Notes: generated by a model from the letters alone, not told the origin. 16,436 nucleotides of DNA from a virus (IMGVR_UViG_2695420343_000001), one strand, 5' to 3'. Counted from the stretch's first letter, positions 146 through 16,436 are shown. Numbers and translations: made by a program.

Positions 146-223
146 GATATGGGGTTTTGGTCGTTGTTAATGAGCAGAACAATCATGAACCGCCAACGAC
201 TGGATTCTCCCTTGGTTTATGTT

Positions 224-256
224 GGTGCGCATAATGTACGACTCGTTATGTTGAAA
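224..256 (+). other. dif-like XerCD recombination site (attL / phage attP-derived site 1)
   Basis: GGTGCGCATAA (224-234) is identical to the XerC-binding arm of enterobacterial dif as I recall it (GGTGCGCATAA-TGTATA-TTATGTTAAAT). TTATGTTGAAA (246-256) matches the XerD arm at 9/11. The arms are separated by 11 nt (TGTACGACTCG) instead of 6. Confidence 0.6.
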
Positions 257-257
257 A

Positions 258-289
258 GGCCGCTGCGAAAATCGAATCCCGCAGCGGCC
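258..289 (-). terminator. Perfect 10-bp-stem hairpin; candidate Rho-independent terminator of the leftward operon and core of the attP fold
   Basis: GGCCGCTGCG (258-267) pairs perfectly with CGCAGCGGCC (280-289), with a 12-nt loop. On the minus-strand transcript the stem is followed by UUUUC. It lies directly downstream of the stop of the 123-aa gene (320). Confidence 0.5.
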
Positions 290-290
290 T

Positions 291-317
291 CTTTAGCATA
301 ACGTCATTATGCGAACC
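291..317 (-). other. Second dif-like site, inverted relative to 224-256
   Basis: Reverse complement of 291-317 reads GGTTCGCATAA-TGACG-TTATGCTAAAG: XerC-like arm with 1 mismatch, XerD-like arm 9/11. Confidence 0.45.
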
Positions 318-319
318 AA

Positions 320-691
320 TTATAGTTTATTCGTAACCAGCATTTTTTCAGTCGCTATACCACCATGGATAAATCCATATTGGAGCAACCATTTTTGTAA
401 TGCGTTCACATCTTGGAATAACGCTTCAACACCACTAGACTTTGATAGATAAGCAGCAAGATTTCTCTCTGTGCTTTCAAATGGGTCATCAACTTCCATA
501 TTAGGATTATTATTGATAAATACGTACTCACCACTTTCATTTTTTTGTATTGATGCGCTATCAATTATAAGGCTAATGTGTTCATTTATTGCATTAAGCG
601 CTTCAAATTCAATCGTATATGGAAAGTTTCTTAAATAGTGGCTTCTGATTATGTCGTATATTCCTTGACGGCTATAAAGTTGATTTTTCAT
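320..691 (-). CDS. Hypothetical soluble protein, 123 aa (cargo cassette gene 3)
   Basis: ORF from the track. Strong RBS (AGAGGAG about 7 nt upstream of the ATG on the minus strand). No TM segment. AT-rich. I recognise no family. Confidence 0.65.
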   Translation of the reverse strand: MKNQLYSRQGIYDIIRSHYLRNFPYTIEFEALNAINEHISLIIDSASIQKNESGEYVFINNNPNMEVDDPFESTERNLAAYLSKSSGVEALFQDVNALQKWLLQYGFIHGGIATEKMLVTNKL

Positions 692-736
692 CCTTACTCC
701 TCTACTTGTTTTGCTTCGATATAAAGTGTATTTAAA

Positions 737-13448: not shown

Positions 13449-13482
13449 ATGCGAACCTTTAAAATGTAATGGAGATAGAGTT

Positions 13483-13716
13483 ATGTTTAAAAAAATCGTT
13501 AGTTTTCTGGCTGTACCTGCATTAATGGCTGTTTCTGGCGCGACTTTCGCTGCAGAAGGAGCGGCATCAAGTGGTGTTGATTTATCGCCGCTGACGAACA
13601 GCATTGATTTCAGTACAGTTCTGGTTGCGATTATGGCCGTTGCTGCTTCACTGGTAACACTTTATGCCGGTGTCGCTGGCGTTCGCTGGGTATTGCGTAC
13701 CGTTAAATCCGCATAA
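13483..13716 (+). CDS. Major coat protein (copy 2)
   Basis: Translation identical to 4126..4359. Confidence 0.8.
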   Translation: MFKKIVSFLAVPALMAVSGATFAAEGAASSGVDLSPLTNSIDFSTVLVAIMAVAASLVTLYAGVAGVRWVLRTVKSA

Positions 13717-13766
13717 ATTCATTATTCATGGGCGATGCAATATCGCCCGTTTTACTTGAGGTTATT

Positions 13767-13850
13767 ATGGAGATTGAATTATGGAAATTGGGTTCCCTTT
13801 TATGGGGGATCGTCTCAGCTTATGTCGTTATTCTTGGGCTAAGAGGCTGA
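13767..13850 (+). CDS. Small hydrophobic 27-aa ORF (copy 2)
   Basis: Same sequence as 4410..4493. Confidence 0.3.
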   Translation: MEIELWKLGSLLWGIVSAYVVILGLRG

Positions 13851-15493
13851 CGGTTTATTCCTTTATTTTTTCCTTTCTCTGGGTTTCCTTTCCCCGATAT
13901 TCATATTCATTTGTACCAGCAATTGCAGCAGTGGCTGCGCGGGCTGTTATTCCTAAAGTCGTTGGCCGGGTGCTTGTTCGTCGCTTTGCTGCCAATGATG
14001 CGATTTATACGGCATCACAGCTTACAGCAACCCGTGTTTTTGTTGGCCGCGCTGCGGCTAATGCTGCCGAATACTTGCCTGCTGCCTCATCATACAAAAT
14101 GAGCGGTGTTGCAACGTGGGCGGGTATTGCTGCTGCTGTATCATCTTTTGTTCCGTCTTCTTTGAGTTCATCTGACGGCTCGGTAATGGTAATGACTAAC
14201 GGTAAAAAGATTTCCGATAATTTATATGAAGTAACGTACAGTGGTCAAAGTGGTGAAAGTAAGACGATAACCGTTAATTTTGAACCACAGGAATTAAGTC
14301 CGGTAATCCTTCATGTTAGTCGTAATAATGTGGATGCGGGTTCTCCAGTTGTAGGTGTTGAAACAGGATATTCCACGCCAGATAATGCGCTTTATTATTA
14401 TCAGGATTCGAAAGAGCTAATTTATTACTATGGTGATAATCCAACTGAAATTGCCAGAAATTATCTTAATGACTATAACTCGCGTACTTATACTGAAACA
14501 CTAACGAATTTTGAACGCACTGTGACGAATAAAGTTGTCAACAGTAATGGAGATGTATCCTTTACTGAACAGAATTATAAGTTTACTTATCCTTCCTCAT
14601 TTTATGAAATACCTGAGATTACACACTTGTATAGCAACCCGGCCGCATCTTCATTTCCCGCAGGTATTCCCATGTATGAAAATGTAGCAGGGCTTCCCAT
14701 GTATTACAGCGTTGCTTATTTAACAGCAGGCAAGCAATATCAGTATCACAACACGCCTTGTAAAACGACTAATCAGTCAAATGGTGGATATTCGACGATT
14801 TGCGCCGTTCCTGAAAAAGAGGATTACACCGCAAAAGATATTGATGAAAAGAGTGAGCTTACTATCTGGACCAATACCAAATATAAAGCCATGACGGAAG
14901 TACTGGAGGCCGGAAATATTGAGTCCATGATTGATTATCTGGAGTATCTTGATAGTGTTAGTGTATCGCCAGCACTTCTTGCCGACATGATTAACGAGCT
15001 GTGGTCTGAAGCTGCCGTTAATGCCGATTATAACGGCTTACCGTTTAAAGAGGTTTCACCGGCTGAAGTAACTTCTGCGATGTCGGAACTTAGGCTATCT
15101 CCAACGTTATTAGATATGCTTTCACCTGTATCTGACAGTGCGGGGGCTGACGTCAATATTGATATTACCATTAATAACAACTCAGGGTCTGACACTGGAA
15201 ATAATGGCAATATAGATTTGGGAGAAGATCCCGGTGTAAAAGAGCCTGAGCTTGAAGAAACGCCAACGGCAAGAGATATTTTAACGCCAATTATTAACTT
15301 GTTGCCTTTTACAAACGAATTTAACATCGGCTCTCGTTCAGCATCCTGCCCCGTTGTTGAATTCAGCGTGTTTAATCACCAGTACAGAATTGACTCCCAT
15401 TGTCCGTTAATTGAGCAGAACAGAAGCGCCGTAGAAACCATATTTCTGATTATATGGGGATTTGTTGCGCTCCGTATTATTCTGAGTGCCTAA
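13781..15493 (+). CDS. gpIII-like adsorption protein (copy 2)
   Basis: Translation identical to 4424..6136. Confidence 0.7.
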   Translation: MEIGFPFMGDRLSLCRYSWAKRLTVYSFIFSFLWVSFPRYSYSFVPAIAAVAARAVIPKVVGRVLVRRFAANDAIYTASQLTATRVFVGRAAANAAEYLPAASSYKMSGVATWAGIAAAVSSFVPSSLSSSDGSVMVMTNGKKISDNLYEVTYSGQSGESKTITVNFEPQELSPVILHVSRNNVDAGSPVVGVETGYSTPDNALYYYQDSKELIYYYGDNPTEIARNYLNDYNSRTYTETLTNFERTVTNKVVNSNGDVSFTEQNYKFTYPSSFYEIPEITHLYSNPAASSFPAGIPMYENVAGLPMYYSVAYLTAGKQYQYHNTPCKTTNQSNGGYSTICAVPEKEDYTAKDIDEKSELTIWTNTKYKAMTEVLEAGNIESMIDYLEYLDSVSVSPALLADMINELWSEAAVNADYNGLPFKEVSPAEVTSAMSELRLSPTLLDMLSPVSDSAGADVNIDITINNNSGSDTGNNGNIDLGEDPGVKEPELEETPTARDILTPIINLLPFTNEFNIGSRSASCPVVEFSVFNHQYRIDSHCPLIEQNRSAVETIFLIIWGFVALRIILSA

Positions 15494-15505
15494 AGGAGTG
15501 CAACT

Positions 15506-15793
15506 ATGTTTGGGATTCTGATTAGTGCATTAAATACTTTGTTAGGTTTTGTATTCCGGTCATTGATTATTAAATTCGTCGTATTCTTTGCGCTGTATTT
15601 TGTAGTCCAGGGCTTCGTTGAAATCCTTGTTGAGTTACTGCCAGATTCAAGCAATCTCTCATCGCTGTTTGCCAATTTATCAGACGGATTCTGGTACTTC
15701 ATTAACCTGAGTAAATTACCACAGGGGATTAGTATGATTATCTCCGCAATGGCTACTCGTTTTATTATTCGACGTATTCCTGTTATAGGGTGA
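15506..15793 (+). CDS. gpVI-like minor coat protein (copy 2)
   Basis: Translation identical to 6149..6436. Confidence 0.6.
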   Translation: MFGILISALNTLLGFVFRSLIIKFVVFFALYFVVQGFVEILVELLPDSSNLSSLFANLSDGFWYFINLSKLPQGISMIISAMATRFIIRRIPVIG

Positions 15794-15796
15794 GTT

Positions 15797-16436
15797 ATGG
15801 CTATTTCTGCATATATTGGCATACCCGGCTCAGGAAAAAGTTATGAAGCCGTTTGCAATGTCATTATTCCTGCATTTACCAGCGGCCGGAGAGTTGTGAC
15901 GAACATTTATGGTTTACAAAAAGATAAAATCACCGAACGTTATCCTGATGCAACGGGAGAAATTATTGTTGTGGATAATGATGATGTGCTTAAAGCAGAT
16001 TTCTTTCCTTTTAAAGGTGGGGAAGGGAGCTTTTGCCAGTTTGGTGATTTAATTGTTATTGATGAAGCATGGCGAATCTTCGGTAGCGATAAGGATATGA
16101 CGGCTGAGAAGAAATCATTTATTGCTGAACATCGTCATTTTACGCACCCTGAAACGGGTATTAGCTGTGATTTGGTTATTGTAAATCAGTCACTTTCTAA
16201 TATTGCTCGCTTTCTGAAAGACAAAATAGAAACAACTTACCGGATGCGCAAGCTGAAAGCGTTGGGCCTGAATAATCATTACTGCATTGACGTATATTCA
16301 GGCCACAAAATCTATAAAAGCAACCTCGTCACCAGTTATCGCAATAAATATAACCCTGATATTTTTGAACTTTATAAAAGCTATGAAGGAAATAACGGTA
16401 ATGAAAAGCAGACAGATAAACGCCAGAGCATCTGGA
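15797..16436 (+). CDS. Zot / gpI-like assembly ATPase, 5' portion only (copy 2, truncated by window end)
   Basis: Same start and Walker A as 6440..7465; runs off the window. Confidence 0.8.
   Translation, partial: MAISAYIGIPGSGKSYEAVCNVIIPAFTSGRRVVTNIYGLQKDKITERYPDATGEIIVVDNDDVLKADFFPFKGGEGSFCQFGDLIVIDEAWRIFGSDKDMTAEKKSFIAEHRHFTHPETGISCDLVIVNQSLSNIARFLKDKIETTYRMRKLKALGLNNHYCIDVYSGHKIYKSNLVTSYRNKYNPDIFELYKSYEGNNGNEKQTDKRQSIW

Follow-up and report, generated by a model that had tools for sequence, protein, structure and literature searches.

Head-to-tail CUS-1/YpfΦ-family filamentous prophages at the hipA side of dif in Escherichia coli: a probable tandem array of the CTXφ type, with a proposed mechanism

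The filamentous phage YpfΦ of Yersinia pestis forms two to four tandem copies at dif, regenerates dif, and is experimentally infectious (PMC4266046). It is entered with CUS-1Φ, in a table of PMC4246890, among the phages that integrate irreversibly and need rolling-circle replication for their production; PMC3442271 refers to "enterobacterial IMEXs related to CTXφ", and the conclusion that the attP sites of these phages are CTXφ-like was already drawn by Val et al. 2005, as that work is cited in PMC3089051. What the literature has assigned to CUS-1Φ and YpfΦ, by sequence analysis, is a single XerC strand exchange that is completed by replication and is irreversible. For CTXφ itself, two Ig-1 nick sites next to rstR are required (PMC8265649), and later papers, citing Davis & Waldor 2000 and Moyer 2001, have its (+) strands made from one origin to the next. 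The tandem state at dif is known biology for the CUS-1/YpfΦ family, and both it and the Xer biology behind it have been treated in print (Derbise & Carniel 2014; Bischerour 2012; Das 2014). The DNA dealt with here is set against these systems: 16,436 nucleotides of the viral sequence IMGVR_UViG_2695420343_000001 ("the window" throughout), which hold one whole copy of a 9357-bp filamentous prophage and the beginning of another, next to the E. coli hipA gene.

The window is read, with a probability of roughly 0.78, as the part of the E. coli dif locus that adjoins hipA, holding, head to tail, two or more identical inovirus prophages of the CUS-1/YpfΦ family: Xer-exploiting elements of the CTXφ type, for which a mechanism is proposed below. 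When every base is compared with the base 9357 positions downstream, 166 mismatches are found, all of them in 1-221, and none across 222-7079; that is, 222-7079 recurs as 9579-16436 (6858 bp, 100% identity, period 9357), with a phage-phage junction at 9578/9579. The list of open reading frames (ORFs) is duplicated at the same offset, and copy 2 (9579-16436, + strand) ends at the window edge inside its pI/Zot gene (15797-16436). Chance cannot account for a perfect 6.9-kb repeat, and the identical head-to-tail copies claimed by the initial annotation are borne out. So is its claim that the left flank differs from what precedes copy 2, 1-221 being unrelated to 9358-9578. The flank consists of the 3' end of chromosomal hipA, the toxin gene of hipBA (1-145, + strand), followed by the hipA-dif spacer (146-221), host DNA that is near-identical to the K-12 sequence upstream of dif. 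Flank-led queries match 5341 of the 5426 complete E. coli genomes that constitute the survey set, and the genomes closest to the window are those of MS8345, UID2309220036 and M9682-C1 (99.9-100%, few indels); in the MS8345 record (L001) the window maps from 20001 and hipA ends at 20145, a layout shared with K-12. The possibility that 1-221 might itself be phage sequence is disposed of by this assignment to hipA and the dif spacer, and the locus is therefore, as had been proposed, a chromosomal array and not a linearised circle.

The kinship with CUS-1/Ypf-type phages, which had been tentatively suggested, is now firmly placed: the unit is 99.5% identical to the YpfΦ prophage carried by Y. pestis NCTC5923 over 7820 bp of DNA and 99.8% identical to the UTI89 prophage over 5 kb; its repressor and eleven proteins encoded on the + strand (core and right-end) match their YpfΦ counterparts over their full length at 97.6-100% identity; and near-identical prophages occupy the same site in UTI89 and in about 100 other E. 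coli genomes. Judged by these identities, the phage of the window is a cargo variant of CUS-1/YpfΦ. A comparison of the unit with the phage collection brought up no close DNA relative except a fragment of If1, which is taken up below.

The attachment region can be specified base by base. Seventeen bases, TTGGTGCGCATAATGTA, are common to host dif and phage attP and form the crossover zone at 222-238 (= 9579-9595, + strand), with the XerC arm GGTGCGCATAA at 224-234; host DNA therefore gives way to phage DNA at some point inside 222-238, probably after the XerC arm, at 234/235. An attP1-type site at 224-256 (+ strand) comprises the XerC arm, an 11-nt overlap (TGTACGACTCG) and a XerD-like arm (TTATGTTGAAA, 246-256). 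It is followed by a GC-rich stem-loop at 258-289, the apex of the attP hairpin when folded (and terminator-like for the minus-strand cargo genes), and by an inverted, attP2-type dif-like site at 291-317 (- strand), GGTTCGCATAA TGACG TTATGCTAAAG, with a 5-nt overlap. The complete attP region is found again at the phage-phage junction (9579-9680, + strand), with attP1 at 9581-9613, the stem-loop at 9615-9646 and attP2 at 9648-9674. The empty K-12 site reads GGTGCGCATAA TGTATA TTATGTTAAAT, and the attL of the window and the junction both read GGTGCGCATAA TGTACGACTCG TTATGTTGAAA: the phage overlap shares TGTA with the TGTATA overlap of dif, and there, on the XerC side, identity to dif stops. Folded as DNA, the + strand of the attP region (222-322) gives a forked hairpin of -33.2 kcal/mol (z -7.0). 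Across ten variants (from E. coli, Yersinia, Brenneria, Photorhabdus and IMG/VR contigs) the consensus structure retains the two arm duplexes (XerC and XerD), the bulge in the top strand and the stem at the apex; it contains four compensated pairs, all contributed by a single divergent Brenneria sequence, the rest being near-invariant. The + strand of the window has the same sense as the phage genes and the same orientation as the If1 viral strand.

Two inverted dif-like sites (224-256 and 291-317) that fold into a forked hairpin in the (+) strand, duplex overlaps of non-canonical length (11 and 5 nt) and homology to dif limited to the XerC side are the hallmarks of the CTXφ type, the likeness that the initial annotation had invoked. 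Canonical Xer substrates have spacers of 6-8 bp. No canonical 28-bp dif with a 6-nt spacer was found in the window, with up to three mismatches allowed. The two other ways of using XerCD were considered and rejected: the VGJφ type by the spacers of 11 and 5 together with the lack of a dif-like site with a 6-nt spacer at that same tolerance, and the TLCφ type by the termination of identity to dif within the overlap, on the XerC side, at TGTA. Integration at dif, likewise foreseen, is seen on both sides of such arrays, in the attL at the hipA-dif spacer of the window and in the perfect dif that closes the arrays of related genomes (every array, seven in all in E. coli, whose right end was within the fetched sequence). 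After integration the attL is non-functional, made up of a host XerC arm and phage sequence, and the right end again has a perfect dif. Y. pestis is instructive in this respect: its attL retains the host XerC arm GGTGCACATAA and its junction carries the phage arm GGTGCGCATAA, as an exchange on the XerC side predicts.

The following sequence of events is proposed. The packaged (+) strand would be the + strand of the window; its inverted dif-like sites would pair into the forked hairpin and so display the two arms, XerC and XerD, together with a bulged overlap; on the XerC side, one pair of strands would then be exchanged with dif by the host XerCD, and replication would complete the process. 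With duplex sites that have 11-bp and 5-bp spacers, the prophage should not be able to excise by Xer. The rebuilt dif would accept further phage genomes, and homologous recombination would subsequently reshape the array, a mode of growth with which the mixed array described below accords. For production, the CTXφ paradigm and the recombination joints suggest that pII would nick the origin hairpin of copy 1 (1780-1819), beside the repressor gene; the displaced (+) strand would run through the core genes, across the junction, and close at the origin of copy 2 (11137-11176), the product being one 9357-nt circle with a reconstituted attP. With the core genes intact and two candidate origins present in the window, virion competence, which the initial annotation had predicted from the arrangement, is plausible.

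The candidate (+) origin hairpin (GAACGTGCAGTGTTGGTAATACTGCACGTTTGTCTCATTC, + strand) was nominated before the test of lineage switches that is described next. Its two occurrences, at 1780 and 11137, are separated by exactly one 9357-nt genome. The I2-2 intergenic region has one significant match in the unit, and this is the 40-bp hairpin at 1780-1819, 90% identical; the pII proteins of the two phages are 57.8% identical. The central 33 bases are invariant among the E. coli variants, Y. pestis, Brenneria (which is only about 71% identical outside the hairpin) and I2-2, and the fold has a z of -5.45. Like the Ig-1 of CTXφ, which adjoins rstR, the hairpin adjoins a repressor gene. The Ff (+) origin core, GTTCTTTAATAGTGGACTC, was not found even when three mismatches were allowed, and a literature search for a mapped I2-2 origin yielded nothing useful.

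(A second intergenic element deserves a technical note. A 48-bp sequence at 1263-1310 and 10620-10667, + strand, matches part of If1's major intergenic region at 96% identity and lies in the same strand orientation, in phages that are otherwise unrelated at the DNA level; it forms the right boundary of the cargo cassette. It was set aside as an origin: If1 pII has no detectable relation to the pII of the window, and the fold, with a z of -1.3, is not significant. It may be a complementary-strand origin or some other signal that the host recognises.)

Lineage switches map to the candidate origin or lie beside it. The array of strain GW-AmxH19 consists of two copies with different cargo. Its unit 2 is of the window lineage at nearly all informative sites in 1279-1767 (the sole exception is 1759) and agrees with its unit 1, which belongs to a lineage with DUF6953 cargo, at 27 of the 27 informative sites in 1901-8962. 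The switch is confined to 1768-1900, about 134 bp that include the hairpin; a random homologous crossover would be expected to fall in the first 134 bp of this 7.8-kb tract (~99.65% identity) in about 2% of cases. In the IMG/VR contig L027 the left part resembles the window and the core resembles UTI89, the switch lying at ~1690-1772, beside the hairpin, and homology to YpfΦ begins at 1760, within ~100 bp of it. Divergence between lineages is 4-9% just to the left of the hairpin and 0.2-0.4% to the right, an order that is reversed in more distant relatives. At the level of the family, a switch at the candidate origin may be taken as the footprint, indirect as it is, that one would expect rolling-circle production across neighbouring prophages to leave.

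How common are such arrays? Among the complete E. coli genomes, 115 of the 5426 have the pII gene, in 215 places (median 2 per genome, maximum 5), all but one of which are chromosomal. An evenly spaced sample of 27 full-length records comprises nine with one copy, eleven with two, four with three, two with four and one with five. The phage-phage junction itself, queried with a 202-bp probe (at least 80% covered), is found in 63 genomes; a 600-bp junction probe found only 8 because it spans the variable cargo. The arrays inspected individually are diverse: M9682-C1 has two identical 9357-bp copies, UID2309220036 has three copies and NC101 at least two; MS8345 has two copies with an IS3-family insertion sequence in the second only, just 3' of the secretin gene (L001 38175-39388); MS20658 has two, the second with a zot/secretin deletion; and FDAARGOS_1300 has two identical 10,670-bp units (100%) with the same IS3-family element at the same position in both (L014 18229-19442 and 28899-30112), a sign that copies within an array are homogenised or duplicated. 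In MS8345, MS20658 and GW-AmxH19 the copies are distinguishable, which establishes that arrays are real in this family. TUM14759 combines three noisy chromosomal copies with a 9565-bp circular record (L002, NZ_CP128883.1), a complete phage genome with intact attP that is either the replicative form or an artefact of assembling the repeat. A hybrid joint was sought by comparing that circle with the three chromosomal copies and the comparison was dropped on account of indel errors (45-61 gap openings per pair).

Three other explanations have to be weighed. The one that survives best, though it is unlikely, accepts the array and makes it silent: a neutral by-product of repeated integration, held off by its helix-turn-helix (HTH) repressor or by host factors. 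YpfΦ does give low titres and is repressed by host RovA, extrachromosomal records are almost absent, and copies decay in some strains, through insertion of an IS element or through the zot/secretin deletion. Against silence stand core genes that are all intact and differ little, or not at all, from those of infectious YpfΦ, and the cores that are at least 99.4% identical over 5 kb across E. coli lineages and Y. pestis; these near-identical cores, together with relatives of pII (85-99% identical) in Klebsiella, Brenneria, Phytobacter and Photorhabdus, imply ongoing horizontal transfer. The reassortment joints at the origin also argue for activity.

Slightly less probable still is an array that is real but arose by unequal crossing-over or duplication, and that releases phage DNA not through rolling-circle synthesis but by excision, RecA- or Xer-mediated, between its direct repeats. 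Any direct repeat is able to loop out one unit; the identical, IS3-bearing units of FDAARGOS_1300 fit duplication or homogenisation; and the YpfΦ review (PMC4266046) appeals to homologous recombination for excision and mentions that insertion can occur between copies. The mixed array of GW-AmxH19, however, cannot come from duplication, the position of its switch is one that a random crossover would rarely select (the ~2% calculated above), and duplex att sites with 11- and 5-bp spacers depart from what Xer ordinarily recombines. The weakest of the three, that one prophage, perhaps accompanied by its circular replicative form, was unrolled by the assembler into two copies, can point to the lack of any difference between the window copies, to the identical phage standing alone in APEC E19019 and UTME-9/10/12 and to the messy TUM14759 locus with its error-ridden copies and separate circle, and is made very improbable by independent complete genomes whose copies are distinguishable (by an IS3 in one, an internal deletion in one, or different cargo), by the junctions in 63 genomes and by the experimental demonstration of YpfΦ arrays of two to four copies.

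The reading of the window as a CTXφ-type tandem array that can give rise to virions has its own weak points, and they should be set out together. Since the two copies do not differ at all, the window provides no internal proof that there are two. APEC E19019 and the UTME strains each have one copy of the same phage, and of the carriers sampled about a third are single-copy. Only one extrachromosomal pII match, the TUM14759 circle, exists among the 116 pII-carrying records (115 genomes), and it comes from a noisy assembly. An episomal state of YpfΦ is known too, and on superinfection this phage inserts preferentially between copies, a preference not foreseen by the classical model. Covariation in the attP hairpin is thin because the sequence is so highly conserved. 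The (+) origin is a candidate, assigned from I2-2 similarity and from recombination joints; and other module boundaries (the hairpin end, ~1291-1320, and the pII start at 2456) do not coincide with it and must have causes apart from the origin. Single-copy carriers and episomal YpfΦ also mean that the array is not the sole state of this phage: it is sufficient, in principle, for virion production, and is not proven to be necessary.

The cargo cassette (323-1315, between the attP hairpin and the If1-like element) varies among phages that are otherwise nearly identical. In the window it holds the ORFs orf123 and orf155; in MS20658 and in unit 1 of GW-AmxH19, a DUF6953 gene and a 264-aa ORF; in NC101, a gene for an STM4504/CBY_0614 protein; in UTI89, a 369-aa ORF; in YpfΦ, YPO2271/2272; and in other strains, an annotated PD-(D/E)XK nuclease. 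One can think of tandem arrays as reassortment devices: rolling-circle synthesis from the origin of one prophage to that of its right-hand neighbour would yield the former's core joined to the neighbour's att-proximal module (hairpin, cargo and orf140). The suggestion is tentative, and is given somewhat less than an even chance. If true, it would explain the sharp jump in divergence at the origin hairpin, the hybrid nature of unit 2 of GW-AmxH19 and the swapping of cargo (ORFs of unknown function, DUF6953, STM4504/CBY_0614, and SIR2 in remnants) in E. coli and Y. pestis; it would also make domesticated leftovers of the phage-less cassettes of hairpin, cargo and If1-like element that are found beside dif and on plasmids.

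The attP hairpin segment 247-323 (= 9604-9680) has matches of ~94-95% identity in roughly 640 E. coli records (examples are L019 5001-5076 and L020 5001-5071), with about 400 of the places being on plasmids. On the chromosome of strain C1 the hairpin stands by hipA and is followed by a minus-strand SIR2-family gene, the remnant of an ISNCY transposase and a perfect dif; on pAPEC2908, the one plasmid examined, an STM4504/CBY_0614 gene comes next, then an ISNCY transposase and a dif-like site. The If1-like element is present in each of these two elements, and the origin hairpin in neither. To judge from their composition, they look like domesticated left ends of prophages that have retained their cargo.

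Exchange is also seen at a second boundary. In more distant relatives (Klebsiella spallanzanii, Brenneria and many IMG/VR contigs; records L007, L009, L010, L037 and others) homology to the window starts exactly at the pII start codon, 2456, from which it follows that the repressor and promoter module is exchanged as a block, in a manner that recalls the heteroimmune rstR variants of CTXφ. Two metagenome-assembled genomes, "Candidatus Nanosynbacter" (L010) and "Aerococcus sp." (L008), carry this enterobacterial phage; the former has the E. coli hipA-dif spacer directly before the hairpin, and both are most likely cases of contamination in binning.

The unit has a complete inovirus gene set, as seen in matches to Pfam and PHROG profiles. 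Replication is represented by the pII rolling-circle initiator (2456-3508; Phage_CRI, 1.2e-73; G2P_X_C, 3.6e-34) and the pV single-stranded DNA-binding protein (3520-3837; Putative_G5P, 1.2e-52), both, like all the genes that follow them, on the + strand. Among the structural and assembly genes of the Inoviridae there are those for the major coat protein (4126-4359; PHROG 2186, virion structural protein, 4e-29, with a weak Phage_Coat_B match below the Pfam cut-off), a pIII-like adsorption protein (4424-6136, with a RefSeq start at 4574; PHROG 3942; 99.6% identical to that of YpfΦ over its full length), a pVI-like protein (6149-6436; DUF2523), the pI/Zot assembly ATPase (6440-7465; Zot, 2.2e-26) and, in addition, the pIV secretin (7465-8709; Secretin, 1.3e-24). 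An 83-aa protein encoded at 3840-4091 (PHROG 3679; "membrane protein" in RefSeq) is a candidate small membrane or minor coat protein. Both window copies have the pIII-like gene as an unbroken ORF of 570 aa; MS8345 (copy 1) and UID2309220036 (copies 1 and 3) have it annotated as frameshifted, by single-base indels that may be sequencing errors in those assemblies.

On the - strand, to the left of pII, lie the gene for the HTH repressor, the positional analogue of RstR (1838-2284; HTH_3, PHROG 3557), and three ORFs of unknown function: orf140 (1316-1738, 140 aa; PHROG 4174), which has diverged by 4-6% between phage lineages, and the cargo ORFs orf155 (737-1204, 155 aa; PHROG 6723) and orf123 (320-691, 123 aa; PHROG 22661). 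Two further ORFs occupy the right end on the + strand: one of 82 aa (8798-9046), by position a homologue of YPO2280a, and one at 9192-9440 (9243-9440 in RefSeq; PHROG 6642), by position a homologue of YPO2281. For the cargo and right-end ORFs there was no credible match from PADLOC or NCBIfam, and no function for orf123 and orf155 emerged from Pfam, NCBIfam or PADLOC. A search of Rfam returned no match, and promoter and terminator scans did not rise above background.

In one sense the finding is ordinary: this is a textbook-style array of filamentous prophages integrated at dif. A connection has been drawn between this family and fitness, both in extra-intestinal E. coli and in pandemic Y. pestis. 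The practical value is confined to three matters. One is annotation, RefSeq having most of these proteins as "hypothetical", pI as "zonular occludens toxin" and pIV as "GspD"; another is the quality control of assemblies, which readily collapse or mis-resolve perfect repeats of 9.4 kb at dif. The third is that the candidate origin at 1780-1819 and the GW-AmxH19 hybrid provide concrete coordinates for a possible CTXφ mechanism of production in the Enterobacteriaceae.

The comparison with known systems, proceeding from the distant to the near, can now be drawn. Elements of the VGJφ and TLCφ types share with the phage of the window the use of host XerCD and dif; their attP is duplex, with a canonical overlap, and their integration is reversible, whereas the sites of the window are a plausible substrate only when folded. 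Phage I2-2, a non-integrating Lineavirus, has the related pII and the matching intergenic hairpin already described; it is without dif-like sites, repressor or cargo, and the remainder of its genome is unrelated at the DNA level. UPφ901 and its relatives (Lineavirus-like, in Enterobacterales) form tandem doubles and triples at E. coli dif, have genes II and V related to those of YpfΦ and vary in accessory genes near the att end; their overall amino-acid identity to YpfΦ is below 30%, and their structural module is a different one.

With CTXφ of V. cholerae the correspondence is one of design: inverted dif-like sites, a forked hairpin, a long top-strand overlap, homology to dif on the XerC side only, a rebuilt dif, tandem arrays, a repressor gene beside the nick region, and, as the working model, rolling-circle synthesis between neighbouring origins. 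The components differ. The Rep of the window phage is a pII of the Phage_CRI (Ff/I2-2) type; the phage has its own secretin, whereas CTXφ uses that of its host, and it has no toxin genes; and the overlaps are of 12 and 7 nt in CTXφ and of 11 and 5 nt in the window. CUS-1 of E. coli O18:K1:H7, for which the UTI89 prophage serves as representative, agrees in species, in hipA-adjacent site, in core and in hairpin; it differs in being present in one copy, in having one cargo ORF, of 369 aa, where the window has orf123 and orf155, and in an orf140 that has diverged by 6%. YpfΦ (CUS-2), from Y. pestis biovar Orientalis, differs in host, in host XerC arm (GGTGCACATAA instead of the GGTGCGCATAA of the window), in the length of its unit (8742 bp compared with 9357 bp) and in its left module, YPO2271/YPO2272 being unrelated to what the window has at 323-1759 (orf123, orf155 and orf140). 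It shares with the phage of the window the core, from the origin hairpin to the right end, and the 101-bp attP hairpin; and it too integrates at dif, has dif rebuilt at its right end, and is reported in tandem arrays of two to four copies.

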